From Bacteroidota bacterium (GTDB lineage Bacteria; Bacteroidota; Bacteroidia; M30B66): a DNA stretch of 64,000 nt. The stretch lies in assembly GCA_027483445.1 (NCBI GenBank), contig JAIXUS010000008.1:60487-124486 (forward strand), read 5' to 3'. Below the pieces are notes generated by a model, which did not search any database, was not told the DNA's origin, and worked only from the letters and a program-made list of their open reading frames with translations. Every line of letters starts with the position of its first letter. Positions within the stretch are counted from its first letter, which is position 1. The translations under genes and the position numbers were made by a program. This document shows, piece after piece, positions 2,317 through 61,032 of this stretch.

Positions 2317-3135
2317 TTATAAATGCTCCGCGATGAGGTGTTTAAAAATGGCGGTCATTTTAACCTCCGCTTTCGACGCCGCAGCAATCACATCTTCGTG
2401 CGTTACCTCCATGATTTTACCTTCCACTCCGAGGTCGGTGATTACGCTTACCGCAAAACACGGGATCGACATGTGGCGGGCTGCAATCACCTCCGGAACG
2501 GTCGACATACCCACGGCGTCGCCACCAATAATACGCATGTATTTGTACTCCGCCGGCGTTTCGAAACATGGGCCACTTACCGAAACATACACCCCTTCGT
2601 GAAGGGTAAAGCCTTCGTTTTGCGCAAATTCTCTGGCATGGGCCAGCATTTTGCGGTCGTATGGCTCGCTCATATCAGGGAAACGAGGTCCGAATTCTTT
2701 CTCGTTCTTTCCAATCAACGGGTTTGAAGGCAGCAGATTGATATGGTCGTTCAGGGCCATCACATCGCCAATTTCGTAGTTCGGGTTTACACCGCCACTG
2801 GCATTGCTTACAAACAGAAACTGGATGCCCAGGTATTTCATCACCCGAACGGGGAAAACCACTTGCTGCATCGAATACCCTTCGTAGAAATGAAAGCGAC
2901 CCTGCATTACCACAACGGGTTTGCCACCAATCTTTCCAAATATCAGTTTGCCGGAATGGCCTTCTACTGTTGATACCGGGAAATTGGGGATTTCCTCATA
3001 GGGTAAAACATAGGCGGTTTCGATTTCTCTAACCAATCCGCCGAGGCCGGTTCCGAGAATGATTCCAGCCGCAGGTTCAAATCCTTCTGTTTTTGAGCGG
3101 ATGTACTCAACGGTTTGTTGTATCTCCTTCAACAT
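2317..3135 (-). CDS. Purine nucleoside phosphorylase, trimeric PNP/MTAP family
   Basis: The '[12 protein letters not shown]' and '[11 protein letters not shown]' motifs are present. The start is taken at the internal Met '[15 protein letters not shown]' and verified at nt 3135. It overlaps the 3' end of lpxK by 29 nt. Confidence 0.85.
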
Positions 3136-4150
3136 AAGCGTAAATGCGTTTTTTAAGGTCTTCTTCCCGGTCGAACCGGTATTGTATGGGTATTTCGAAC
3201 CAGAATGATTGTAGCTCCGGCGCAACCAGCGAATGAAGCTTCACATGGTCTTTTGCCGTACACAACACGCGGGCGTCGTGGGCAAACATACAACGTTTTG
3301 CCTCGATTTGAGCCACATCATCGGCCGTGTAAGCATGGTGGTCTTCAAAACGAAAATGCTGCTTCGGCCCCTTTCCCTCCTTAAAAAGCTCCTGCAAACC
3401 GCCATCACCGGCCAAACCGGTTACCAAAACAAAGGGCTCGGAAAGCGCCTGCTGCACCCCGATTTTTGCACTGCCATCAAACGAAATCAACGACTCATAC
3501 TCAATCGTCGAAAAGTAAATGTTGTGGGGTGGAAATGGGTGGATGGCCTTGTAGATGGCCTCTTTCTCCCATTGCTGAATGGTGTGCGGACATTTGCTGA
3601 TGACTACCACGTCGGCTTTCAGCCTCCGTTTCCACAAGTCGCGTTCATTTCCCGCCGGGAGCAACAAACGTGGCTTGAAAAAGTCGGCGAAAGGCATCAT
3701 CAATACTGAAAATCCAGCCTGAATCCGACGGTGTTGATACGCGTCATCGAGCAATATCACCTGCACGCCTGCACGCTCTTTGAGTATCCTACTGATGCCG
3801 TTTTTTCGATTTCCATCTACCGCCACCGGAGCCTCCGGAAATGCCTGTTTGAACAGCATGGGCTCATCGCCGGTTTCGGTGGTATTCATTTCCTGCTCTA
3901 CCCATCGAAAGCCCTTGCTTTTTCGTCCGTAGCCCCGACTCAGAAAGGCCGGTTTATGCTTGGTAATGAGCCAATTACCGAGTTGTAGAATCATTGGTGT
4001 TTTGCCACTTCCACCTACCCTTAAATTGCCCACAACAATGGTTCGTACCGGAGCCTTCCACGACGCCAACACACCTTGGTCGTACAGCCAATGCCTGATG
4101 AATAAAACCAAACCGAACAGCCATGAAAAGGGGAGAAGTAAACTTCGCAT
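3107..4150 (-). CDS. lpxK: Tetraacyldisaccharide 4'-kinase
   Basis: It has a 'VGNLRVGGSGKTP' P-loop and an N-terminal membrane anchor 'MRSLLLPFSWLFGLV'. The start is moved to an internal Met, with the ATG verified at 4150-4148. Confidence 0.85.
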   Translation of the reverse strand: MRSLLLPFSWLFGLVLFIRHWLYDQGVLASWKAPVRTIVVGNLRVGGSGKTPMILQLGNWLITKHKPAFLSRGYGRKSKGFRWVEQEMNTTETGDEPMLFKQAFPEAPVAVDGNRKNGISRILKERAGVQVILLDDAYQHRRIQAGFSVLMMPFADFFKPRLLLPAGNERDLWKRRLKADVVVISKCPHTIQQWEKEAIYKAIHPFPPHNIYFSTIEYESLISFDGSAKIGVQQALSEPFVLVTGLAGDGGLQELFKEGKGPKQHFRFEDHHAYTADDVAQIEAKRCMFAHDARVLCTAKDHVKLHSLVAPELQSFWFEIPIQYRFDREEDLKKRIYAYVEGDTTNR

Positions 4151-4190
4151 CGCTACAAAGAAAAGGATGTTTTGCGATTGAGTACCTTCG

Positions 4191-5297
4191 TTGCCCGATA
4201 TGCAAATCACGATTTCAACCATTATTGCGGTGCTCGAACGCTGGGCGCCGCCTTCGCTGCAAGAGAGTTACGACAATTCCGGCTTGCTTACCGGCTCACC
4301 GGATATGGCATTCACGGGAGCCGTTGTTTGTTTGGATGCCACCGAGGAGGTCATATTCGAGGCTGCTGCAAAAGGCTTTAATCTGGTGGTTGCGCACCAT
4401 CCCATCGTGTTCAGCGGATTGAAAAAGCTGAACGGAAAGAATTATGTGGAGCGGGCAATTATGGCCGCGATTCGGAACGATGTGGCCATCTACGCGCTGC
4501 ATACCAATCTCGATGCGGTGCATACGGGTGTGAATCAACGAATTGGAGAGATGCTAGGCATGGCTGATATGGCCATTTTACGTCCTGCTAAAAACCAATT
4601 GCTGCAATTGAGTACCTACATTCCGCTTGCATCGGTTGAAGCGGTGAAGAATGCCCTGTTTGAAGCCGGAGCCGGAACAATCGGTAAATACAGCAACTGT
4701 AGTTTTTCGGTGGATGGCAGAGGCACTTTTCGCGCTGAGGATGGTGCCAATCCATACATTGGAAATATTGGAGAAACCCATACCGAGTCGGAGGTGCGTA
4801 TTGAGCTGACCGTTCCCCGCTGGCTGAAGGGAAGCGTTGAAGCGGCGTTGAAAAAAGCACACCCTTACGAGGTTGTAGCATTTAACTGGATTGCCTTGGA
4901 AAATGTGCACCAGGAAATAGGCTCCGGCATGGTTGGTCAGTTGCCGGAGTCGGTGCAGGTGATGGACTTTTTGCAGAAATTGAAGCGCACCTTCGGTGGG
5001 ATGGTAAGGCATACTCGTTTGCTTTCCGATTCTATTCAACGGGTTGCCTGGTGTGGCGGATCAGGTAGTTTTTTACTCGATGATGCCATCCGGCAGAAGG
5101 CCGATATCTTCCTTACTTCAGATTTTAAATACCATCAGTTTTTTGATGCAGAGGACAAAATTGTGATTGTAGATATCGGACACTTTGAAAATGAGCAGTT
5201 TACAATGAAGTTAATTTATGAGGTGCTGAATAAGAATTTTCCTAATTTTGCGGGCTGCATTACTCAGGTGCACACCAATCCGATTCATTATCTCTGA
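4191..5297 (+). CDS. Nif3-family dinuclear metal centre protein, a YqfO/GTP cyclohydrolase 1 type 2 homolog
   Basis: The architecture is typical of Nif3 (COG0327), with an inserted PII-like domain. The alternative start 'MQITIS' at 4200 is equally plausible. Confidence 0.8.
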   Translation: MPDMQITISTIIAVLERWAPPSLQESYDNSGLLTGSPDMAFTGAVVCLDATEEVIFEAAAKGFNLVVAHHPIVFSGLKKLNGKNYVERAIMAAIRNDVAIYALHTNLDAVHTGVNQRIGEMLGMADMAILRPAKNQLLQLSTYIPLASVEAVKNALFEAGAGTIGKYSNCSFSVDGRGTFRAEDGANPYIGNIGETHTESEVRIELTVPRWLKGSVEAALKKAHPYEVVAFNWIALENVHQEIGSGMVGQLPESVQVMDFLQKLKRTFGGMVRHTRLLSDSIQRVAWCGGSGSFLLDDAIRQKADIFLTSDFKYHQFFDAEDKIVIVDIGHFENEQFTMKLIYEVLNKNFPNFAGCITQVHTNPIHYL

Positions 5298-6120: not shown

Positions 6121-7566
6121 ATGCGCCACCTCTGCTGTTTGCTAACCTGCTTTTTTTTGCTTTCTTCGCTCAAAGCAGGTCAGTATGTGCTTTCTTCTGA
6201 GGTCAAACACATTTGGGAAGCCCAGTTGCGTTTCGATTGGGAGAGTGTTCAACAGTCGCTGAAAAAGGCAAAAGCTCAGGAGCCCGACAATCTCTTCTAC
6301 CCATTTCTTGAGGCCCGAACGCTGTTTCTGAAGGTTATTCTCTTCGACGACCCGGCCGATCTGTTGCAATTCCGGCTGCGGTATCAAGATCAACTAGAGC
6401 AGTTGGAAAGTGCGTCCGAAGAATCTGCATTTTCGTTGTTCTGCCTTTCTGAGTTTTACTTGCAATCTTCTTTCATCCACGCCCGTGAGTCGGAGCCGAT
6501 TAGTGCAGCCCGCGCCTTGAAGAAAGCATTCCATTACAACAACAGAAACCGCGCACAGCATCCCGATTTTGCACTACAGCTCAAAACACAGGTTGTTTTA
6601 CAGGCGCTCGCCTCGGCAATACCTAACTCATATCGATGGATGGCCGATTTAGCCGGAATCTCCGCAAGTTCCCGTGAGGCACTGCAGGCTTTGAAGGTGT
6701 TCAGGAACACATTAATAACCCAACAAACACACGTCTTCCTCCAGCCGGAACTGTACTTTATTGATGTATTTATCAGCACTCAATTGAATGATCATGCGCG
6801 CTCTGTTGCTGTGCCTGATGGCTTTACCAATCATCCTTTGGTTTCTTTGAGCCAGATGCTGCACCACCAAAAGCAACGAAATGCAAAGGCGGTACTTCAA
6901 GCCTATCAACAATATAAAGCTTCACGGGCCGCCACCTTTCCGTACTTGTTTTATCTGCAAGCTGAGGCTTTGCAAAACTCCGGTCATTCAGCGGCTTCAT
7001 TTAGCTACTTCTTGCTAAACAGCCGCGGAAACTGGTTTCGGGCCTCTGCCTTGCGAAAGTTAGCCTGGGAAGCCTTACTGCTTGGTAACCCGAACGAATA
7101 TTCCAAGCGCATGCAGCAGATCCTCGAGCTAAAGCAATTTCCATCGGAAGAAGACCGGCAGGCGAGGCGAGAGGCTCAACTAAAGCGAAGGCCCCTGTCT
7201 GGTTTGCTGAAGTCGAGACTACTCGCCGATGGTGGTTTATACAACGAAGCCCTAATGGCCTTGCAAAACAACGAATATCAGCTTCGTGACCGTTACGATT
7301 CTACTGAGTGGCACTACCGCCGGGGCAGGGCCTTTCAGGGACTAAACCGCATCACTGAGGCCATCGCCTGTTTTGAGCAGACCATTGTTTTGGGGCTAAA
7401 GCTCAGTGAGTATTTTGCAGCTTCTGCGGCACTCCAGGCAGGTATTCTATTAAAGGAGACAAACCCAAGTCTTGCCCGGAACTATTGGCGCAAAGTGAGT
7501 CGCTTTCCCAACCACCCCTACAAAAAAAGCCTCGACGCAAAGGCCGAGGCTTTCTTGAGTTTATAG
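6121..7566 (+). CDS. Hypothetical secreted protein with helical (TPR-like) repeats
   Basis: It has an N-terminal signal peptide 'LLTCFFLLSSLKAG' and an alpha-helical, Leu/Ala/Gln-rich composition. No catalytic motif was recognised. Confidence 0.5.
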   Translation: MRHLCCLLTCFFLLSSLKAGQYVLSSEVKHIWEAQLRFDWESVQQSLKKAKAQEPDNLFYPFLEARTLFLKVILFDDPADLLQFRLRYQDQLEQLESASEESAFSLFCLSEFYLQSSFIHARESEPISAARALKKAFHYNNRNRAQHPDFALQLKTQVVLQALASAIPNSYRWMADLAGISASSREALQALKVFRNTLITQQTHVFLQPELYFIDVFISTQLNDHARSVAVPDGFTNHPLVSLSQMLHHQKQRNAKAVLQAYQQYKASRAATFPYLFYLQAEALQNSGHSAASFSYFLLNSRGNWFRASALRKLAWEALLLGNPNEYSKRMQQILELKQFPSEEDRQARREAQLKRRPLSGLLKSRLLADGGLYNEALMALQNNEYQLRDRYDSTEWHYRRGRAFQGLNRITEAIACFEQTIVLGLKLSEYFAASAALQAGILLKETNPSLARNYWRKVSRFPNHPYKKSLDAKAEAFLSL

Positions 7567-7582: not shown

Positions 7583-9052
7583 TCAGAATCGGGTACCAAT
7601 CGAAAAAACGATGTTGTTGTTGCGAATTCGGGCGTTGGCCGGTTGAATATTTAATCCCGGTGCTGAGTAAGGGAAAAACATGAGGTCTTGACCTGAGAAT
7701 GCATACGAAATATCCATAAAAAAGTCGCCATTCCGATAGCCTCCACCCAAAGAATACACCTGATAGGCTTTTCCAAAAGCGGTGTTTTCGTAAGGCGTAC
7801 CAATTACTTGAACGCCGCCGCGGGCGTATAAATCGTTGAAACGTCCTTCCAGACCAATCCTTAGATTTCCGCTATTCCGAAAGCCATCTCTGATTTGGTC
7901 GTTAAATGCTGCATAAGAATCGGCGTCATCCATTAACCGAAGGCGCGAGTAATTGACCATTTCATAGTCGATGGAGAGCAAGCCCAGCTTCTTGTAAACA
8001 AAAGCGCCGCTAAAGGTGAAGCGCGCCGGATTTCTCAATTTATACCGATACTCTCCATCGGGAGAGGCATAATAAAATTCGCCGGTGGCCAGGCTGCTGC
8101 TCATTTCGGCGAAATACTCGGTACGTACTGTATAATCTAGCGGTAACAGAGCCGAAGCGCCGAGTCTGAAAAAGTCGTTAACCCGATAAATGGCACCTGC
8201 TCGTAGTGCTACTGATGTAGCCCGATCACTGAGTGTTTGTCGGTATTCGAGATTGTTAAATCCAGGCACTGAGTCGGTTTCGTTCCTCTCGGAGTACGTG
8301 TATTCACGCTCGTAAACAATGCGGCGAATGGCCAGGCTACCACCAACATACAAACGATTGCTGTAATTGCCGGCAAAGGCGATATTCGTTTCTCCGGCTC
8401 TCCCGCGGGTTTCAATCAATCCACGTTGGGTCATCCCCCCGTTAAGGGGACCATAAATACTGGTGTAACCACTGCCTGTAGTTTGATCAGGGTCGATGAG
8501 AAAGGTTTGGTAAGCCAGCGCAGACCCAAATGGGTTAAGGTTGCCCGGACTGGCATTTCCGGCATCGAGGATGAACTGATTAACCAGAGAGTTGTCTGGA
8601 TTGACACCTTTGAAACTCCAGCGTTCGCTAAGATTGCTTTGTTTGTTGTAACCGATAGCGAATGTGGTACTCAGCCAACCCTTGGTTTTCAGGCGGTTGA
8701 AGGAAGGTGAGTGGATGACCAAATGTAAATTCGGAATATTGAAGTTGAACTTTCGGTCGTCGGAGCTGCTTCCATAAAAGGTACTGCTTCCCGATGCATT
8801 GAAAATACTGGCGCTACCGGCGAATTCGCTCATTCTATACAATCCGATACCGGCCGGGTTTACGCTTACGCTTGAAAAATCGGCTCCAACTGCTCCGATT
8901 GCCCCTCCCATACCTTGCGAAAGTGCGGTGCCACCGGTTTGAGTTCGGCTATACCGCACCGCATCGTCGGTGTTTTGTGCCGGCAACTCCGAAATCAGAG
9001 CTGCCAGCACGATCATCAAAACACTATTTTTATTCATCATCCTGAATTTCAA
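7583..9052 (-). CDS. FadL/TodX-family outer-membrane beta-barrel protein (PorV-like fold)
   Basis: It has a signal peptide, a glycine-rich N-terminal hatch with an 'NPAGIG' (NPA) motif and a C-terminal aromatic residue (…GTRF). It lies 3 nt downstream of the lipoprotein gene on the same strand. Confidence 0.65.
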   Translation of the reverse strand: MKFRMMNKNSVLMIVLAALISELPAQNTDDAVRYSRTQTGGTALSQGMGGAIGAVGADFSSVSVNPAGIGLYRMSEFAGSASIFNASGSSTFYGSSSDDRKFNFNIPNLHLVIHSPSFNRLKTKGWLSTTFAIGYNKQSNLSERWSFKGVNPDNSLVNQFILDAGNASPGNLNPFGSALAYQTFLIDPDQTTGSGYTSIYGPLNGGMTQRGLIETRGRAGETNIAFAGNYSNRLYVGGSLAIRRIVYEREYTYSERNETDSVPGFNNLEYRQTLSDRATSVALRAGAIYRVNDFFRLGASALLPLDYTVRTEYFAEMSSSLATGEFYYASPDGEYRYKLRNPARFTFSGAFVYKKLGLLSIDYEMVNYSRLRLMDDADSYAAFNDQIRDGFRNSGNLRIGLEGRFNDLYARGGVQVIGTPYENTAFGKAYQVYSLGGGYRNGDFFMDISYAFSGQDLMFFPYSAPGLNIQPANARIRNNNIVFSIGTRF

Positions 9053-9055
9053 GGA

Positions 9056-11260
9056 TTAACGACGAGGTGAACTCATTCTGTTTCCGCCCGAAGGAGCACT
9101 TGGACGAGGGCTGCTACCCGGACTGCTCATGCGAGGGCTACTCTCCATGCGTGGTGAGCTCATTCTTGGACTACTCTCCATGCGCGGCGAGCTTATTCTT
9201 GGACTACTTTCCATGCGTGGGCTGGATTGCATGCGCTGTTCGCGTTGAGGTGTTTGATAGTTTTGATTCATGTTGCGCTGTTCGCGCTGAGGGCTTTGGT
9301 ACTGCTGAAAGTTATTTTGACGTTCAGGCTGACGTTGGTATTCCTGATAGTTGTTTCTTGGAACCGACTGTGGTTGGCGATACTGCTGTTGTTGCTGCGG
9401 CATCTGCTGGAAATTGTTCCTTGGTTGGCTTTCAGGTTGACGCATCTGCGGCTGCACCGGATTGCGTTGATCCATTTGAGGTTGACGGAAATCCTGCTGA
9501 CGGGGTTGTTGCTGAACAGGTTGATCGGGGCGAACCGATGGATTCATGGGCTGTCGTACATCGTTTGGACGAGTAATGGGCTGTGGTGAATACTGTTCGG
9601 GCCTTGTTGTAGGTTGCTGAGGACGCACAGTGGAAGGCTGCTGAGGGCGGACCACTTCGGGCGTATTATTCCGTATGGCGTTGTTGTAGTTGTAGTTAGG
9701 ATTGTACAACTCTTTCTGTGGAGTGCCCGTTACCGGCTGCCCGGGGCGCGATTGAAGTCCACCATTTGCAGGACTCACACCATTGCCGGGGTTTCGCAAA
9801 TCGTTGGATGGGCGTGTACCGAATGGTGAGCTTGGAGCATTGTCGGAAACTACCTGTGGTTGGTTAGAATTTACCGGAGCGCTGGTATAGTTGTCGGCTT
9901 TAGGGCGAACTACACCTTGCTGAATGAGCTGGTCTTTTCCGCTTCCACCTGAAGTAGCCGGGCTATACTGGTTTACTTTACCGGGCTGCTGAGCCTGAAT
10001 AGGCTGTGTGCCGGTTCCGGTTTGTTTTCCGGGCTGTTGAGCCTGTACAGGCTGAACTCCATTGGAAGTTTGTTTTCCGGGTTGCACAGGAGTGTTTATC
10101 TCCTGTTTTCCGGGACTTGATGGGTTTTGTACTCCACTCACGCCCGGTTTAGCACTGTTGTTCTGAACGTTGCCTGGAAGTTTTCCGCTACCAGAGTTAG
10201 CATTGTTTTGATTTACCGGGGTTGAGCCACCTTTTACATCTTGAGCTGTACCAAGGTTGTTCACCGGTTTTACAACATTACCTCCAGTTGAGTTTACCAC
10301 AGGCATTCCATCTTTTCCACTATGCGCTACAGAAGGCGTCATGCCGAGCTGCTTAGAAAAATTAGAAGTTAAGTTTGGAGCGGTCGTGAAGCCTGAACCT
10401 CCGCCAATACCTCCGGTGTTAGGACCAAATGATACGGGGGCGTTGAAGTTAAAGGTGTTATAATCAAAACTGTTGTAATACACAGGGTTATTGAACATGT
10501 TGTTCATCATCATGCCGTAGGCAAAACCATTGTTAAACCCTTGCTGATAGCCTAAACCGTAGTTGAACGGTGAATGGAAGAAGGGGTTGTAAGCGAATGG
10601 CGACATAAATGGATCGTAGCCCCAGTTATTCCAACGCCAAGGGTTGTTGAAATTCCAAGGATTGTTCCAAGGGTTGTTCCAGGAGTTGAATCCAATATTG
10701 AAGTGCCAGCCTGTGAAAGAGTTCCACCCAAAGTTGACCCCTGGAGTCCAGCTATTCCAACCCCAAGGTACAAATGGATTGAAGAAGGAGTAAGTGGAGT
10801 AGATTGAATTACCAAACATGAATGGATCATAATTGTACCAGTACATGTTTGTGAAGAAAGGGTCGTAATATCCAAAACCCGGCATTGGACGGTGGAAACG
10901 ACGTATGCGGGAAGCGAACATGTAATCGTAATAATCGTCCATGTCGTAATCCACGTCGTAGTAATTGTTTACGATAGGAGCGTCGCCGTTATTGTCGGGC
11001 ATTGAGGTATAGTCGTTTGCGCGCGCTCCGGATTGGTTATCGGGAGCATCAAAGCCGTCCATGTTTTCTACTGATTCGCGTGGGGCGGATTCAGCAGGTT
11101 GACTTTGATTGAGTTTTTTAAGTTGTCGGGCTTCCCTTCGAGCGTCAGCCAACGAATAATATCGGTCGTCGGCCTCAAAGCGAGCGGTGTTCCGGTTGGT
11201 GCTGCAGGAAGTGCTGAGGATCATCAACACAACTCCTGAAAGAATCGGTAGGAGTTTCAT
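9056..11260 (-). CDS. Low-complexity lipoprotein with three compositional zones: N/W/F/Y/P-rich, then Q/P/G-rich, then tandem [12 protein letters not shown]-terminal repeats
   Basis: The start is moved to the internal '[20 protein letters not shown]' (ATG verified at 11260-11258), giving a signal peptide and a Cys lipobox-like site. The rest of the protein has extreme compositional bias. Confidence 0.6.
9097..9228. repeat. Tandem 33-bp coding repeats encoding [11 protein letters not shown]
   Basis: Two near-identical 33-bp units, ctctccatgcg(t/c)gg(t/c)gagct(c/t)attcttggacta, are flanked by degenerate copies. Confidence 0.8.
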
Positions 11261-11372
11261 GGTACCGGGATTATGTAAAGTAAAAAGGGACATTCGGCGA
11301 AGGCAGCGGTTTTGTGTTAATTTTGCCGCTGACGACGCGATTTTTACAAATACCATACCACACAAAAAATAC

Positions 11373-12845
11373 ATGAGTAAAGTATTGGCAAGCCGTGAGG
11401 AAAATTACGCTCAATGGTACAACGATCTGGTAATCAAGGCCGATTTGGCCGATAACTCCGCTGTTCGCGGATGCATGGTCATTAAACCTTATGGTTACGC
11501 CATTTGGGAAAAAATGCAGCAGGCACTCGACCAGATGTTCAAAGACACCGGACATGTGAATGCCTATTTTCCTTTGTTCATTCCGAAATCGTTTTTAAGC
11601 AAAGAAGCGGCACATATTGAAGGTTTTGCCAAAGAGTGCGCTGTGGTAACACACTATCGTTTGAAGAATGATGAAAACGGAAAAGGCGTAATTGTAGATC
11701 CGGAAGCCAAACTTGAAGAGGAGCTCATTGTTCGACCAACATCTGAAACCATTATTTGGAACACCTACCGCGATTGGATTCAGTCGTACCGCGATTTACC
11801 ATTGTTGATTAACCAGTGGGCCAATGTTGTTCGCTGGGAGATGCGTACGCGGCTCTTTTTGCGTACGGCAGAGTTCCTTTGGCAGGAAGGGCATACCGCG
11901 CATGCCACAGCTGAAGAAGCGGTGGAGGAAACCCGTCGAATGCTGGACGTTTATGCCGATTTTGCGGAGAATTTCATGGCCATACCGGTGATTAAAGGTG
12001 TGAAAACGGCCAATGAACGTTTTGCCGGTGCAGTTGACACTTATTGCATCGAGGCGATGATGCAAGACGGTAAAGCCTTACAGGCCGGTACCTCGCACTT
12101 TTTGGGGCAGAACTTCGCCAAAGCATTTGAGGTGAAGTTTACCGGAAAAGATGGAAAACAAGACTACGTTTGGGCTACCTCATGGGGCGTTTCAACACGC
12201 TTGATGGGAGCGTTAATTATGACTCACAGCGACGATAAGGGCTTGGTTTTGCCTCCAAAATTGGCTCCTTTTCAGGTGGTTATCGTTCCAATTTATCGTT
12301 CCGACGAAGAATACCAGACGGTGTGCGATGCCGGGAGATCCATCAAAAAGGAGCTGGAGCGATTCGGCGTGCGGGTAAAACTCGACGACCGCGACACCCA
12401 CAAGCCCGGATTTAAATTTAATGAGTATGAGTTGCGTGGTGTTCCGCTCCGCATTGCCATTGGTCCGCGCGACGTGGCCAACGGAACAGTTGAGGTAGCC
12501 CGCCGCGATACCTTGGAAAAAGAAGTGCTGCAGTTGGCAGACCTGAGTAATAAGGTAGTACACTTGCTTGAGCAAATTCAGCAAAACTTGTATACAAAGG
12601 CTCTGTCGCACCGCGAACAAAACACCCACAGGGCAGACCATTGGGACGAGTTCATTCAAAAACTCGATATTGGAGGATTCGTTTATGCCCATTGGGATGG
12701 AACTGCCGAAACGGAAGAGAAAATTAAAACACTCACCAAGGCAACCATTCGTTGCATACCTTTAGGCAATCCTTCGGAGGAAGGAGCCTGTATCTTAACC
12801 GGAAAACCATCTACCCAACGGGTTATTTTTGCCCGTGCATATTGA
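11373..12845 (+). CDS. proS: Proline--tRNA ligase (archaeal/eukaryotic-type class II ProRS)
   Basis: The '[19 protein letters not shown]' N-terminus and class II aaRS motifs are present. The ATG is verified at 11373. It is transcribed divergently from the lipoprotein gene. Confidence 0.9.
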
Positions 12846-12852
12846 TTGAACT

Positions 12853-13539
12853 ATGGCGAATGCAGAGGAACTTATCCTTCAAACCCTCAAAGAGAAAGCC
12901 TGCTTAAAACAGGATATCTTCAAGCTGACCATCGATATTTTTGATGAGTTTAAGCAGGAACTCAGAAAAATTGCCGTTTCGCTCAATGAGCAGATTCAGC
13001 AGGTCGATAAGCGGGTGGTAATTGAGTACCACGAACGTTCGCCTTTTTCAATTTACATCAGAACTGCCGGCGATTTGCTCGTATTTGAAATGCACACCAA
13101 TGTGTTTCTTTTCGACAGCCAGCATAAGATATGGAATTTGAGCTACCTCGATGAGGACAGTACCCGTGGCTATTGCGGTTTAATCTCGATGTACAACTTC
13201 CTGTCAGATTCGATGAAGTACAAGCGAGTGAATGACGTTGGATATCTCATTGGTCGCTTGTTTGTGAACAAAGACAGACATTTTATCGTGGAAGGCAAGC
13301 GACAGATGGGGTTTTTGTACAACAATTTCTCTGCTGATGTTCTGAATTCAGAGCGTATTCGCGAGGTGATTCATTCAGCGATACTCTTCGTTTTGAATTT
13401 CGATTTGCTCACACCTCCGTATGAGGCGGTTCAGGAGGCTTCGATAAATCAGCTGAATGAAAATGCACAAATGATGAATTCGATAACCGGTAAGCGCCTC
13501 GGTTTTCGTTTTCACAATGATGAGGACCAGATTGTATGA
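12853..13539 (+). CDS. Hypothetical protein
   Basis: This is a 228-aa ORF in an operon position after proS, with no recognisable motif. Confidence 0.45.
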   Translation: MANAEELILQTLKEKACLKQDIFKLTIDIFDEFKQELRKIAVSLNEQIQQVDKRVVIEYHERSPFSIYIRTAGDLLVFEMHTNVFLFDSQHKIWNLSYLDEDSTRGYCGLISMYNFLSDSMKYKRVNDVGYLIGRLFVNKDRHFIVEGKRQMGFLYNNFSADVLNSERIREVIHSAILFVLNFDLLTPPYEAVQEASINQLNENAQMMNSITGKRLGFRFHNDEDQIV

Positions 13540-35130: not shown

Positions 35131-36684
35131 TTACCGAACGCTCAGGGTGATGTATGGAATGAGCATTTCTTCTAATGATATACCTCCATGCTGAAATGTG
35201 TTTCGGTAGTAATTTACGTAGTAATTGTAGTTATTGGGGTAGGCGAAAAATTTATCCTCTTTGGCAAACACAAAACCTGAACTAACATGCTGTCGTGGAA
35301 GGTAAATATCGGCTGGGTTTTTTACCTCAAAAACGTCTCTTTTCTCGTAGTTCAGATTTTTACCTTGTTTATAACGGAGGTTTGTATTGGTATTTCGATC
35401 GCCAATAATTTTACTAGGTTCCGTTACTCGAATGGTACCATGGTCGGTAGTGATGATTAAACGAGCTTTGCGTTCGGCAATTTGACGGAAAATATCCAGT
35501 AAAGGTGAATGCTCAAGCCAGCTTTGTGTAATTGAGCGATAGGCTTTTTCATCGTCAGCAAGCTCACGGATTACCTCCATTTCTGTTCGAGCGTGAGAGA
35601 GCATATCTACAAAATTGTAAACAATTACATTGAATTTGTTAACCATTAAATTCGGAATGTTATCCGACAACTTTTTTCCAGCCTGGAGATTGGTGATTTT
35701 CGTGTAAGAAGTTTTGATGTCTTTACCCAATCGTTTGAGCTGCTCCTGCATGAAAAACTCTTCATGTAGGTTTTTCCCTCCTTCATCTTCATCGTTAAGC
35801 CAATATTTTGGATAACGCTTTTCAATTTCTGAAGGCATCAACCCTGCAAAAAAGGCGTTACGCGCATACTGAGTTGCAGTAGGCAAAATGGAGCAGTACA
35901 AATCCTCTTGGTCAACTTTAAAATAATCATTCAATAGAGGTTGAATAACCTTCCATTGGTCGTATCTGAGGTTATCAATCAAGACCAAGAATGTAGTTTC
36001 TGCCTTGTCAATTTCAGGGATTACCCTGTTTTTGAAAATTGTATGAGAGAGTAGGGGAGCATTGGCATCCTTACCATTTAGCCAATCCTGATAATTATGA
36101 ATGATGTATTTATTAAACTGAGTATTGGCTTCGGATTTCTGCATGCGTAAGATTTCTTCCATGCCTTCTTCCTTAGAACGGGTTAATTCTAACTCCCAAA
36201 AAACCAACTTCTGATACACTTCTTTCCACTCATTAAAATTAAGCCGGTCGCTGAGTGTCATCCCAATTTGCCTAAACTCCTGCTGGTAAGCCGATGATGT
36301 TTTCTCACGAATCAACCGCTTATTTTCAAGGTTCTTTTTCAGTGAAAGCAAAATTTGGTTGGGATTAACAGGTTTGATTAGATAATCGGAGATTTGTGAG
36401 CCAATGGCATCTTCCATAATGTGCTCTTCTTCCGATTTGGTGATCATCACAACAGGTATATCGTTTCGGATTTGCTTTATCTTCACCAGAGTTTCCAAGC
36501 CGGATATTCCAGGCATGTTTTCATCCAGAAAAATAATATCAAAGGGTTGTTCCTTCACAAGGTCTAACGCATCGTCGCCTGAGTTGGCCGTTGCTACTTC
36601 ATAGCCTTTTTCTTTCAAAAAAAGGATATGTGGCTTGAGCAATTCGATTTCGTCATCGGCCCAGAGTATATTGATCTTATCCAT
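35131..36684 (-). CDS. porX: PorX-type response regulator: CheY receiver fused to a PglZ/alkaline-phosphatase-like domain (T9SS regulator)
   Basis: The N-terminal receiver has the acceptor Asp 'IIFLDENMPG' and a 'K' in 'LIKP'. A roughly 380-aa C-terminal PglZ-like domain gives a total of 517 aa, as in PorX. Confidence 0.75.
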   Translation of the reverse strand: MDKINILWADDEIELLKPHILFLKEKGYEVATANSGDDALDLVKEQPFDIIFLDENMPGISGLETLVKIKQIRNDIPVVMITKSEEEHIMEDAIGSQISDYLIKPVNPNQILLSLKKNLENKRLIREKTSSAYQQEFRQIGMTLSDRLNFNEWKEVYQKLVFWELELTRSKEEGMEEILRMQKSEANTQFNKYIIHNYQDWLNGKDANAPLLSHTIFKNRVIPEIDKAETTFLVLIDNLRYDQWKVIQPLLNDYFKVDQEDLYCSILPTATQYARNAFFAGLMPSEIEKRYPKYWLNDEDEGGKNLHEEFFMQEQLKRLGKDIKTSYTKITNLQAGKKLSDNIPNLMVNKFNVIVYNFVDMLSHARTEMEVIRELADDEKAYRSITQSWLEHSPLLDIFRQIAERKARLIITTDHGTIRVTEPSKIIGDRNTNTNLRYKQGKNLNYEKRDVFEVKNPADIYLPRQHVSSGFVFAKEDKFFAYPNNYNYYVNYYRNTFQHGGISLEEMLIPYITLSVR

Positions 36685-44071: not shown

Positions 44072-44144
44072 GCCGAAGTAGCTCAGCTGGTAGAGCAGCT
44101 GATTTGTAATCAGCTGGTCGGGGGTTCGAGTCCCTTCTTCGGCT
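44072..44144 (+). tRNA. tRNA-Thr (anticodon TGT)
   Basis: A manual cloverleaf was drawn with acceptor gccgaag/cttcggc, anticodon loop ttTGTaa and T-loop ttcgagt. No CCA is encoded. Confidence 0.85.
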
Positions 44145-44176
44145 CTGTTCTTTGTAGTACTTAGTACAAGGAGGTT

Positions 44177-44262
44177 GGGGAGATAGCCAAGTGGCCAACG
44201 GCAACAGACTGTAAATCTGTCCTCTTCGGAGTTCGCAGGTTCGAATCCTGCTCTCCCCACCA
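44177..44262 (+). tRNA. tRNA-Tyr (anticodon GTA), long variable arm, CCA encoded
   Basis: Acceptor ggggaga/tctcccc, anticodon loop ctGTAaa, a long variable arm and a 3' CCA were identified. Confidence 0.85.
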
Positions 44263-44310
44263 CGAAAAAAACGGTTGGAGCTGCACTTGCCGTTGCAGCG
44301 ACAACTAAAA

Positions 44311-44386
44311 GCGGAAGTAGCTCATTTGGTAGAGCATCAGCCTTCCAAGCTGAGGGTGGCCGGTTCGAGCCCGGTCTTCCGCTCCA
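44311..44386 (+). tRNA. tRNA-Gly (anticodon TCC), CCA encoded
   Basis: Acceptor gcggaag/cttccgc, anticodon loop ctTCCaa and T-loop ttcgagc were identified. Confidence 0.85.
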
Positions 44387-44408
44387 ATTTGGTTCTTTTG
44401 AACCAGAA

Positions 44409-44480
<72 letters not shown>

Positions 44481-45831: not shown

Positions 45832-45904
45832 ACGGGTGTAGCTCAATTGGTAGAGTGGCGGTCTCCAAAACCGTAGGTTGTAGGTTCGAGCCCTGCCATC
45901 CGTG
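45832..45904 (+). tRNA. tRNA-Trp (anticodon CCA)
   Basis: Acceptor acgggtg/catccgt has one G·U pair, with anticodon loop ctCCAaa. It has the canonical position between tuf and secE. Confidence 0.8.
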
Positions 45905-60978: not shown

Positions 60979-61032
60979 AGCACGGTTCAAATTCTTTACA
61001 AAATAACGCTGCAAACAAGGAGGGCATTTCCG

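Follow-up and report, generated by a model that had tools for sequence, protein, structure and literature searches.

We describe a two-gene outer-membrane module of Bacteroidota, in which a FadL-fold barrel is encoded together with a protein of a new family, no member of which has been studied; the pair is a new sort of barrel-plus-lipoprotein module. It lies in a 64,000-nt stretch of DNA, hereafter the window, from a Bacteroidota bacterium (M30B66; assembly GCA_027483445.1, contig JAIXUS010000008.1, positions 60,487–124,486 of the forward strand). Our preferred reading, to which we give a probability of roughly 40%, is a two-protein operon module in which the barrel would anchor a disordered brush or gel beneath the outer membrane, formed by the product of the upstream gene (hereafter the partner). 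The locus is laid out as follows, with positions given in the window:

7583..9052, minus strand: gene for a FadL-family outer-membrane barrel, 489 aa from TTG (ORF)
9056..11260, minus strand: gene for a 734-aa disordered protein, a probable lipoprotein (ORF, dN/dS, homologs); stop codon at 9056–9058
11261..11372, no strand: divergent intergenic region of 112 bp between the partner gene and proS; no promoter signal above shuffles
11373..12845, plus strand: proS (prolyl-tRNA synthetase), a conserved divergent neighbour given as context only (tblastn)

Conservation of the gene pair

The partner ORF is a real gene under purifying selection. On the minus strand its frame stays open over 772 aa (11374 to 9056), within which the ATG at 11260 yields a signal peptide with the conserved Cys19; the same start is used by the public gene calls of a 93%-identical ortholog (P0001). 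Comparison with a 94%-identical ortholog (L001) gave a dN/dS of 0.043 (dS 0.85, dN 0.037), values of 0.00–0.07 zone by zone, zero internal stops and a sole indel of 3 codons, which is in-frame. Low-complexity DNA does generate long spurious ORFs here, e.g., 9067–9576 (+), 9227–9589 (+) and 10552–10875 (−), and the partner matches nothing in family databases, as might a pseudogene in decay, or a frame left open by chance in repeat-rich DNA, placed beside the barrel by accident. This explanation is vanishingly improbable: it is refuted by the dN/dS, by the size of a family whose conserved motifs are common to hundreds of orthologous clusters, and by the kept adjacency to the barrel. A frameshifted pseudogene, which the preliminary description had named as one of two findings that would undo its proposal, is thus discarded. 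The opposite-strand ORFs within the partner gene were dismissed as by-products of low-complexity DNA.

In 22 of 23 informative loci, the partner profile matched the reading frame that lies immediately upstream of the barrel gene; these loci were drawn from assemblies labelled as Flavobacteriales, Bacteroidales, Sphingobacteriaceae and Saprospiraceae and covering several orders. The pairing persists down to barrels of only 27–31% identity. Intergenic gaps were −4 to +39 nt in the loci examined closely; three Saprospiraceae-type loci have a gap of about 100 nt, one of them with a small intervening ORF. A scan for terminators and promoters, with a tool that does not model Bacteroidota promoters, found no terminator between the two genes, and its counts were equal to those of shuffled sequence. 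The best reading is that the two genes form one operon and a strongly conserved outer-membrane module, and the two-gene outer-membrane system suggested in the preliminary description is borne out by the conservation of the pairing. Its spacing of 3 nt between the partner stop and the barrel holds for a TTG start. The ATG at 9040 or 9037 (the ATGs of MMNKN) is the more likely barrel start and would place it 15–18 nt past the partner stop, with the mature N-terminus probably at the Gln after ...LPA.

A divergent proS was found in 21 of 22 loci (14 by tblastn together with L019–L025), again across several orders, and the other neighbours are Zn-ribbon, NIF3 and lpxK genes. The conserved order of proS, Zn-ribbon and NIF3 reveals a locus that is stable as a whole in these lineages, which makes the adjacency of the barrel and its partner weaker as functional evidence.

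Block architecture of the partner, predicted to be disordered

The following features were assigned to the partner:

11204..11260, minus strand: signal peptide with a lipobox-like LSTSC, Cys19 being the predicted lipid anchor (Cys in 68 of 93 members, the other 25 having a type-I signal ending AQ/DD)
11156..11170, minus strand: DDRYY motif, family pattern DD[IVLR]Y[YF] (family alignment)
11105..11152, minus strand: charged helix, residues 37–52 (AlphaFold, block pLDDT about 90)
10952..11200, minus strand: acidic D/A/N N-terminal zone, residues 21–103 (composition)
10787..10951, minus strand: conserved 55-aa core containing GYYDPFYTNxYWYN (family alignment)
10376..10951, minus strand: uncharged aromatic/Asn/Gly/Pro zone, residues 104–295, core included (composition)
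10436..10480, minus strand: motif closing the aromatic zone, family pattern YYNSFDxNxYxYGPR (consensus, present in distant members)
9671..10375, minus strand: G/Q/N/P/V/S/K-rich linker, residues 296–530 (composition; length varies in the family)
9059..9670, minus strand: Q/P/R-rich basic tail ending SSPRR, residues 531–734 (composition)
9116..9229, minus strand: SSPRM(E)SSPRM tandem repeats (Tandem Repeats Finder)

Across the family, the DDxYY motif lies 7–13 residues past the lipid Cys or right at the mature N-terminus; Y34 does not vary, and at least 90% of members have D31/D32. The net charge between the DD motif and the core is −11, and 100% of members are net negative over this stretch (a median of −10). 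The core, with invariant R118, R121, F122, Y131, P146 and G150, is 100% identical to that of L001 despite a dS of 1.7 there. In the query, the aromatic zone (192 aa) contains F 28, Y 19, W 12, N 31, G 21, P 18 and neither K nor E (0 each), so that 31% of it is F/W/Y. The aromatic density greatly exceeds chance, peaking at 38 F/W/Y per 100 aa against 8.3 ± 3.6 (a maximum of 20) for the remaining long ORFs found in the window. Family-wide, the zone comprises Y 16.7%, G 15.0%, N 14.5%, W 8.8%, F 7.8%, K 0.2% and E 0.2%. The region past it varies from 132 to 515 aa and is positive in 100% of the family (a median of +21), with 20 R against 1 K in the last 150 aa; the C-terminal residue is R or K in 78 of 96 members. 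The linker and tail of the query carry a net charge of +25, with 23 R but 0 K among the final 150 aa, and the tail repeats were resolved as a 33-nt unit in 2.5 copies with 90% matches (9138–9220).

The block order is thus the same family-wide: an acidic zone, an uncharged Y/W/F/N/G zone with evenly spaced aromatics, and a basic tail with R far in excess of K that ends in RR. The compositional zones of the three-zone layout first reported are real, although the acidic zone at residues 21–103 had been overlooked and the aromatic tract, at about 190 aa, is shorter than the 250 aa first given and does not come first. Likewise, the composition is biased, as the label of extreme low complexity implied, but conserved motifs and a charge-block architecture are also present.

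The AlphaFold model of the partner has a mean pLDDT of 45.9, conserved core included, compared with 91.8 for the barrel modelled likewise, and besides the signal peptide, the helix at residues 37–52 is its sole confidently predicted element. The partner is therefore predicted to be almost wholly disordered, with the reservation that low AlphaFold confidence does not prove disorder and that an aromatic/Asn/Gly sequence could adopt an amyloid-like or barrel-bound beta structure. Motifs conserved inside predicted disorder are the usual signature of partner-binding segments, which suggests such a role for those found here. The same model shows a weak hairpin at residues 174–190 (pLDDT 63–67).

The spacing of the aromatic residues is more regular than in shuffled sequences: z is −2.6 for the query, the median over the family is −1.78, and 82% of members score below 0. 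Separations of 3–4 are enriched, unlike the separation of 2 that marks beta-strand alternation. The partner thus combines predicted disorder, an uncharged polar/aromatic block, even aromatics and an Arg-rich region, the features of a sticker-and-spacer protein. The prion-like, "sticky" disorder proposed from the sequence accords with these data; the accompanying comparison with FG repeats does not, as 734 aa contain only 5 FG, 0 GLFG and 1 FxFG. FG-nucleoporin-like repeats were rejected on the lack of GLFG/FxFG arrays and on the family-wide excess of Tyr plus Trp over Phe.

FUS-type proteins are eukaryotic condensate scaffolds. The partner resembles FUS/prion-like domains with RGG tails in its uncharged Tyr/Gly/Asn/Ser block, its evenly spaced aromatics and a separate Arg-rich, Lys-poor Gly/Ser tail. 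It differs in being bacterial, envelope-exported, lipid-anchored, barrel-tied and Trp/Pro-rich, with an extra acidic block and no RNA-binding domain. By this analogy and from its composition, the partner may self-associate or form a gel. Curli (CsgA/CsgG) and Fap (FapC/FapF) likewise include an exported protein rich in Asn/Gln/Gly/aromatic residues that is encoded beside an outer-membrane barrel; the imperfect strand-loop-strand repeats of CsgA/FapC and a CsgG/FapF exporter were not found here, and a curli- or Fap-like amyloid system was rejected on the repeat analysis and the structural matches of the barrel.

The homolog search recovered 96 partner homologs, and 637 clusters (50% identity) matched at E ≤ 1e-30, which puts the family at about 640 clusters or more; a search with the alignment of the 55-aa core alone returned 5 short fragments. 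Pfam, searched with 62 aligned members, gave nothing beyond one stray weak PepSY_TM match, NCBIfam gave nothing for the window protein, the only version of the partner submitted to it, and the partner profile retrieved only chance-level matches to low-complexity ribosomal proteins among PDB sequences. This agrees with the initial impression that no characterised family has this layout. A literature search found no paper on this pair of a barrel and a disordered protein.

The FadL-fold barrel

The predicted structure of the barrel gene product is a monomeric, roughly 14-stranded barrel with an N-terminal hatch plug, as in FadL/TodX/TbuX. Its best-conserved part is the N-tail together with the hatch, which carries the following motif:

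8852..8860, minus strand: NPA motif of the hatch domain, SVNPAGIG (alignment of 74 barrels)

Among these 74 barrels, N61, P62 and G64 are invariant and A63 occurs in at least 90%. Against PF03349, the query scores 15.6 bits, below the threshold of 29.7 bits. The single barrel sequence found only chance-level matches to low-complexity ribosomal proteins in PDB sequences; the profile of the 74-member family matched TbuX (5.8e-7) and a P. aeruginosa FadL homologue (5e-4). Because many homologs carry PF03349 and the profile matches TbuX, the sub-threshold score marks the barrel as a divergent FadL subfamily. Among structural matches, the top sequence identity is to TodX (18%), and BamG is also among the best; with FadL and TodX reaching scores as high as those of BamG, the fold cannot tell them apart. 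NPA lies at mature position 40, compared with 33 (33–35, from the mutants N33A and P34A) in E. coli FadL, i.e., 7 residues further from the mature N-terminus, and the tail so extended is highly conserved.

The retained hatch and NPA suggest that the barrel may still transport small molecules, a point against our preferred reading. One explanation built on this is hydrophobic-substrate uptake, in which a FadL/TodX-type channel would admit fatty acids, aromatics or similar compounds and the partner would receive or concentrate the substrate and aid its crossing of the periplasm. The kept FadL fold and invariant NPA, the matches to TodX, TbuX and PF03349, and an uncharged, aromatic-rich segment that could solvate hydrophobic or aromatic ligands all point in this direction. 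Channels of the FadL/TodX/TbuX family let hydrophobic substrates through a lateral opening at the kink of strand S3. Unlike these PF03349 channels, however, the barrel accompanies a disordered partner in its operon (22 of 23 informative loci) and is linked to catabolic, fadD-like or transport genes in 0 of 25 loci, its neighbours being those described above; known FadL-family transporters work without a partner, and a basic tail of 300–500 residues has no obvious role in a hand-off. We therefore regard uptake as quite unlikely to be the function of the pair.

FadL-fold barrels of Bacteroidota are known to hold protein partners, as in BamG-BamH and the products of the adjacent Bt1785/Bt1786 genes (PMC12611786, PMC12578637). 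Both cases resemble the present pair in joining a FadL-fold barrel with a conserved, here possibly comparably extended, N-tail to a lipoprotein (there with its N-terminal tail held by the barrel), and the paralogous Bt1785/Bt1786 genes are adjacent, as here. BamH, a surface lipoprotein, carries an export signal and adopts a carbohydrate-binding-like fold, whereas the partner is predicted to be disordered and lacks such a signal. In addition, the barrel does not match BamG at the sequence level: run against PDB sequences at E ≤ 10, the 74-member profile retrieved no BamG chain (9hiv, 9n2d, 9hjm). The barrel is also about 85–100 aa longer than solved BamGs (489 vs 390–406 aa).

These points bear on a possible accessory role in outer-membrane protein (OMP) biogenesis, with a BamG-like barrel and a partner that serves BAM as a periplasmic holdase, regulator or pseudo-substrate in a BamP-like position. 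BamP is confined to Flavobacteriaceae, and analogues may be unrecognised (PMC12611786). The Y/G/N composition of the partner, rich in Ar-X-Ar (18 such motifs in the aromatic zone), would mimic unfolded outer-membrane proteins; the highly conserved tail of the barrel, longer by 7 residues than in FadL, recalls the one described for BamG; and the locus, which adjoins lpxK, is a housekeeping, vertically inherited one. In BamG, which associates stably with BamA and BamH, a conserved N-terminal extension of about 10–12 residues runs through the lateral opening. Extracellular loop 3 (EL3) of Bacteroidota BamA is also a flexible, unresolved Tyr/Gly/Asn-rich segment with a composition like that of the aromatic zone (PMC12578637), a compositional likeness between 38 extracellular residues inside a folded protein and a block of 150–190 residues in a separate protein. 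The length of the barrel, the matches of its profile to TbuX and the P. aeruginosa FadL homologue rather than to BamG, and the equal structural scores of FadL and TodX argue against such a role, as does the absence of bamA and bamD nearby; BamG is reported to be universal in the phylum, so that a separate true BamG is probably encoded elsewhere in the genome. An accessory role in biogenesis is accordingly, in our estimate, as improbable as uptake.

The type IX shuttle PorV (LptO) gave a structural score below those of FadL and BamG, the barrel matches no NCBIfam family, and no porU is adjacent; the disordered partner lacks a type IX C-terminal domain in Pfam. A PorV with type IX cargo was rejected on the missing PorV model match and the missing domain.

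Membrane side and proposed role

A lipobox Cys is present in 68 of 93 members, many with a canonical L-S-A-C or F-S-G-C. The query has S-T-S-C, which deviates from the canonical box at position −3, and its lipidation is probable rather than certain. The remaining 25 members are non-lipidated and have a type-I signal with the mature end Q-DD-x-YY, which indicates from the alignment that the lipid anchor is dispensable in the family. Because these 25 lack it, another holder, most simply the barrel, must keep the partner at the membrane.

The lipoprotein export signal of Bacteroidota consists of at least two acidic residues among the six that follow the lipid Cys (PMC12578637). None of the 68 lipidated members carries it: one acidic residue occurs in only 2, and a basic residue is present in 43; in the query, the six residues are STNRNT. 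For this reason the periplasmic side appears more likely than the surface, with the qualification that the signal is a statistical rule and that a partner threaded through or passed by the barrel might still reach the surface.

This result weighs against the cell-surface matrix or adhesion component suggested in the preliminary description, in which the barrel would deliver the partner or hold it outside, as PorV and BamG do, as a sticky coat for particles or cell-cell cohesion. In its favour, BamG-BamH and PorV show that FadL-fold barrels bind surface proteins in this phylum, the non-lipidated members require some membrane holder, and a type IX secretion adhesin of 3538 aa is encoded in the neighbourhood. 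The source is apparently a free-living aquatic Bacteroidota, as judged from assembly and sample names only. Mussel foot protein 3 is a marine adhesive protein, and the Y/G/N/W/R composition of the partner is like that of such adhesives. Apart from the missing export signal and type IX domain, however, the conserved hatch and NPA indicate a plugged barrel, through which a chain of 700 residues is unlikely to pass. We consider a surface matrix unlikely.

Returning to the barrel-anchored brush or gel, we infer physical binding, membrane side, self-association and physiological role, and propose the following. The downstream product is a plugged FadL-family barrel, most conserved in its N-tail and its hatch with NPA. 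The upstream product is predicted to be Sec-exported, usually lipid-anchored and without a folded domain. Near its N-terminus, DDxYY at a fixed 7–13 residues from the lipid Cys, the charged helix and the 55-residue Tyr/Arg core may dock it on the periplasmic face of the barrel, a side suggested by the lack of the Bacteroidota surface-export signal in the family. The later blocks (acidic, uncharged aromatic, and a variable P/Q/S/G linker with an Arg-rich S/G/R tail) are conserved by composition rather than by sequence. Numerous weak contacts, based on Tyr/Trp-Arg pairs and on charge, could link the aromatic, acidic and Arg-rich blocks of one molecule to each other and to those of its neighbours, and the outcome would be a brush or gel just below the outer membrane, which the barrel would anchor or with which it would exchange hydrophobic molecules.

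A bolder version is an envelope condensate or hydrogel present in many Bacteroidota. A dedicated FadL-fold barrel would nucleate it in the periplasm (or at the surface), where a fully disordered protein with FUS-like Tyr/Trp-Arg stickers would form a phase that organises the space below the outer membrane or solvates hydrophobic cargo. We hold this to be rather unlikely; if true, no earlier example of a condensate system that resides in the envelope and is nucleated by a barrel would be known, and this one would be core and vertically inherited. Elsewhere in Bacteroidota, the BAM complex and type IX secretion both use FadL-fold barrels as structural partners of other proteins, and the present pair would add a third lineage, with a partner that has no fold and is nonetheless under strong purifying selection over its full length, its block architecture kept across orders. 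Should the two proteins bind, they would offer a tractable bacterial case of function encoded by composition and patterning instead of by structure, in the periplasm or outer membrane, where, to our knowledge, such proteins are almost without precedent.

The cluster entries looked up all carry the label "hypothetical protein" and derive from metagenome assemblies, with no cultured carrier identified; a family definition would annotate thousands of such proteins in environmental Bacteroidota. With regard to RNA or regulatory elements at the locus, Rfam detected only tRNAs in the window, and the divergent region between the partner gene and proS contains a 13-nt imperfect inverted repeat (11297–11309 and 11326–11338).

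A conserved two-gene module

Translation of the window upheld the zones and the two-gene arrangement reported in the preliminary description: a probable lipoprotein (the partner) is encoded directly upstream of a FadL-family outer-membrane protein (the barrel).

9056-11260 (-): partner, 734 aa, predicted to be disordered
7583-9052 (same strand): barrel, starting 3 nt (TTG) or 15-18 nt (ATGs) after the partner stop
9067-9576 (+), 9227-9589 (+), 10552-10875 (-): long spurious ORFs in other frames, overlapping the partner gene

The minus-strand partner frame stays open between 11374 and 9056. Translation from the ATG at 11260 begins with a signal peptide that ends with a conserved Cys, and public gene calls of a 93%-identical ortholog chose the same Met. 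Relative to the close ortholog at locus L001, the sole length difference is one in-frame three-codon indel, there are no internal stops, and dN/dS is 0.043 (dS 0.85, dN 0.037), with zone-by-zone values of 0.00-0.07 that include the junk-looking tails. A conserved 55-residue core shows 100% identity to L001 at a local dS of 1.7. The partner ORF is a real gene, and these values contradict the frameshifted pseudogene that had been considered. The three overlapping ORFs are low-complexity by-products that should not be annotated.

Homologous loci (25) were gathered from both directions, by barrel-based scans of species-representative genomes and by look-ups of distant barrels and distant partners, the latter taking in a non-lipidated partner type. 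The barrel profile matched all 25 loci. In 22 of them the partner profile matched the ORF that immediately precedes the barrel on its strand; of the rest, two lack upstream DNA, and L007 has upstream a lipoprotein of matching composition but with no core. The gap measures -4 to +39 nt in closely examined loci, while three Saprospiraceae-type loci have ~100 nt or a small intervening ORF; no terminator-like site separates the two genes in the window. Conservation of the pair across Bacteroidota, raised earlier as a check, is thus strong, and the pair is a stable core feature. The loci include Flavobacteriales, Bacteroidales, Sphingobacteriaceae and Saprospiraceae according to assembly labels, some of which are clearly unreliable ("Chitinophaga pinensis" metagenome assemblies).

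Divergent proS lies upstream of the partner in 21 of 22 informative loci, and Zn-ribbon and NIF3 genes recur downstream, often with lpxK and a TPR protein. ProS identity is 70-98% across loci while barrel identity drops to 27-31%, indicating an old, vertically inherited block; since the whole neighbourhood is stable, adjacency alone is weaker functional evidence than in a shuffled genome. The 112-bp region between proS and the partner contains an imperfect 13-nt inverted repeat, GCGAAGGCAGCGG / CCGCTGACGACGC, with 16 nt between the arms (11297-11338), which might act as an operator or form a hairpin in the leader. Two further genes flank the block:

6121-7566 (+): 481-aa signal-peptide protein with weak TPR matches, convergent with the barrel
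12853-13539 (+): 228-aa protein without a Pfam match, directly after proS

TPR-like genes occupy the position of the former in four loci (L019, L020, L022, L025); L021 has none there, and this gene is thus only semi-conserved with the module. In L017, L019 and L025, too, proS is followed by a protein of comparable length (231, 228 and 229 aa, respectively) that Pfam does not match, and the 228-aa product may be an uncharacterised, conserved partner of proS.

A word-indexed search recovered 96 partner homologs, all unnamed proteins from uncultured Bacteroidota. When 1.84 billion cluster representatives were searched exhaustively with a profile, 3124 matched at E ≤ 1e-3, of which 1608 reached E ≤ 1e-10 and 637 reached E ≤ 1e-30. 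Except for a single stray weak match, Pfam gave no family for the query or its 61 aligned relatives, NCBIfam none for the query as the one sequence scanned, and PDB no sequence match to the family profile; the partner lies outside every described family. No cultured carrier of the pair was identified, and literature searches returned no description of it. With 637 clusters at the strictest threshold, a dN/dS of 0.043 and the partner upstream of the barrel in 22 loci, the chance that the ORF or its adjacency is accidental is negligible. The module is widespread, strongly constrained and odd.

A divergent FadL-type barrel

The AlphaFold model of the barrel (pLDDT 91.8, pTM 0.85) comprises short N-terminal helices at residues 21-67 followed by a large barrel. 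Structural scores were 28.6 for FadL, 28.2 for TodX, 27.7 for a P. aeruginosa FadL homologue, 27.4-28.4 for three solved BamG chains, 24.9 for PorV and at most 18 for all else; Foldseek agreed with the FadL-type matches, among which TodX had the top sequence identity (18%). Because FadL, TodX and BamG score alike, the fold is FadL-type but does not decide the functional branch. The query falls below the Pfam Toluene_X threshold (15.6 vs 29.7 bits) and matches no NCBIfam model, while many homologs carry PF03349. A 74-sequence profile matches TbuX (5.8e-7) and a FadL homologue (5e-4); chains of BamG and PorV are not among its hits. Two features are invariant in the family, the FadL-hatch NPA motif and the Phe that ends the beta-signal. 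Sharing fold and NPA with FadL but missing the Pfam threshold, the barrel represents a divergent FadL subfamily. On sequence the barrel did not pass as BamG, the profile finding no BamG chain, and it failed both the model and the cargo tests for PorV.

The mature N-tail and hatch are the best-conserved part of the barrel (mean top-residue frequency 0.66-0.76 vs ~0.5 elsewhere), and NPA lies at mature position 40 vs 33-35 in E. coli FadL, a 7-residue extension. BamG has a conserved N-terminal extension of 10-12 residues that leaves through the lateral opening (PMC12578637). A BAM-linked accessory would fit this extended, conserved N-tail, the presence of BamG among the structural matches, the 18 Ar-X-Ar motifs in the aromatic zone of the partner, and the striking compositional match of the partner to EL3, a flexible loop of Bacteroidota BamA that is rich in Tyr/Gly/Asn (PMC12578637); however, sequence does not connect the barrel with BamG, bam genes are absent nearby, and we regard this role as improbable. 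An equally doubtful alternative is a hydrophobic-substrate uptake pair, to which the retained NPA hatch and the affinity to TodX/TbuX point, whereas a linked catabolic gene occurs in 0 of 25 loci. BamG-BamH and the adjacent Bt1785/Bt1786 genes are the closest precedents: a module of outer-membrane barrel and lipoprotein is known as such, but a partner predicted to be fully disordered is unprecedented.

The barrel N-tail, Q-N-x-x-D-A-x-R-Y-S (8990-9020), resembles the D-D-R/I/V-Y-Y-S motif of the partner (DDRYYS, 11156-11176), in the window pair and in the distant pairs of L009, L013 and L017. This likeness could be chance, or the partner motif could mimic, or compete with, the N-tail for one putative binding site.

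Block architecture of the partner

The translated partner divides into four zones, the first absent from the preliminary description:

Residues 21-103: acidic zone
Residues 104-295: uncharged aromatic/Asn/Gly/Pro zone (28 F, 19 Y, 12 W, 31 N, 21 G, 18 P, 0 K, 0 E)
Residues 296-530: G/Q/N/P/V/S zone
Residues 531-734: Q/P/R-rich tail, terminating in SSPRM(E)SSPRM repeats (DNA 9138-9220, 33-nt unit, 2.5 copies)

At its densest the partner has 38 aromatics per 100 residues, vs 8.3 ± 3.6 (maximum 20) in the other long ORFs of the window. The AlphaFold2 model from a 62-sequence alignment has a mean pLDDT of 45.9 (pTM 0.28), compared with 91.8 for the barrel modelled the same way; confidence is high only in the helix of the signal peptide and in a charged one at 37-52, and a weak hairpin appears at 174-190 (pLDDT 63-67). 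The partner is predicted to be disordered, yet it is not featureless. Relatives down to 25-30% identity keep a DD[IVLR]Y[YF] motif near the mature N-terminus, the core (invariant R118, R121, F122, Y131, P146 and G150) and a YYNSFDxNxYxYGPR motif closing the aromatic zone; the DD motif and core occur together in 93 of 97 members. A Ser/Gly/Pro/Arg tail is kept across the family, with R or K as the last residue in 78/96, typically as ...SPRR, ...GRRR or ...RPR.

Every member (100%) has a net negative charge from DD motif to core (median -10) and a net positive charge beyond the aromatic block (median +21), where the last 150 residues contain 20 Arg vs 1 Lys; F/W/Y make up 31% of the aromatic block itself. 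Pooled aromatic zones contain 16.7% Y, 15.0% G, 14.5% N, 8.8% W, 7.8% F, 7.6% P and 7.5% S, with K and E at 0.2% each and I+L+V summing to 4.5%. Aromatics are spaced more evenly than in shuffles of the same zones (query z -2.6, family median -1.78, 82% of members below 0): gaps of 3-4 are enriched and adjacent aromatics depleted, and the gap-2 enrichment expected of an amphipathic beta strand was not found. FUS-family condensate scaffolds combine an uncharged polar block in which aromatics are evenly spaced, a separate Arg-rich, Lys-poor tail and block-wise charge; the partner has the same three features, a likeness of composition and pattern alone. By composition it is a sticker-and-spacer low-complexity protein. 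The definitions of an FG-repeat protein (compositional) and of a curli/Fap amyloid subunit did not fit.

Side of the membrane and genomic setting

A lipobox Cys is present in 68 family members, and a type-I signal with the mature end Q-DD-x-YY in 25; the Cys-to-DD spacing is always 7-13 residues. According to PMC12578637, citing Lauber 2016, the Bacteroidota surface-lipoprotein export signal is at least two acidic residues among the six after the lipid Cys. This signal occurs in 0/68 lipidated members: the six positions contain a single acidic residue in only 2 of them and a basic residue in 43, and read STNRNT in the window partner. By that rule the partner lies on the periplasmic side, and, as non-lipidated members exist, lipid does not determine its location. 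The cell-surface matrix or adhesion role first suggested for the partner is therefore disfavoured, the barrel being plugged and the partner having no type IX C-terminal domain; we consider it unlikely, although a barrel-mediated route to the surface is possible. That DDxYY stays at a fixed distance from the anchor points to docking at a defined height relative to the membrane, with the barrel as the obvious candidate. Our preferred reading, tentatively held at a probability of about 0.4, is that the partner would dock on the barrel at the periplasmic face of the outer membrane, where its disordered chains would self-associate into a barrel-anchored layer. The analysis established the pairing, the predicted disorder, the selection and the block architecture; binding, topology, self-association and role are inferred.

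The module sits among core envelope and housekeeping genes rather than in a mobile or catabolic island, with lipid A genes (lpx) flanking the region. Landmarks along the window are:

3107-4222 (-): lpxK, adjoining the conserved block, likewise in L019 and L020
13982-24598 (-): giant type IX sorting-domain protein, 3538 aa (Por_Secre_tail, E 1.6e-9)
35131-36684 (-): response regulator, receiver-PglZ fusion, 516 aa
38007-41267 (+): lpxD, lpxC-fabZ fusion and lpxA, 27 kb away
44072-44480 and 45832-45904 (+): five tRNA genes flanking tuf
58033-61014 (-): fusion of glycoside hydrolase family 3 and beta-lactamase-family domains, 992 aa

The window also holds gyrB, tuf, rplA and two ORFs of 1270 and 1451 aa at the usual rpoB/rpoC position. 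We take the receiver-PglZ fusion to have the architecture of PorX, a regulator of type IX secretion. The 3538-aa protein, with a similar giant gene at the equal position in L019, is probably a cell-surface adhesin.
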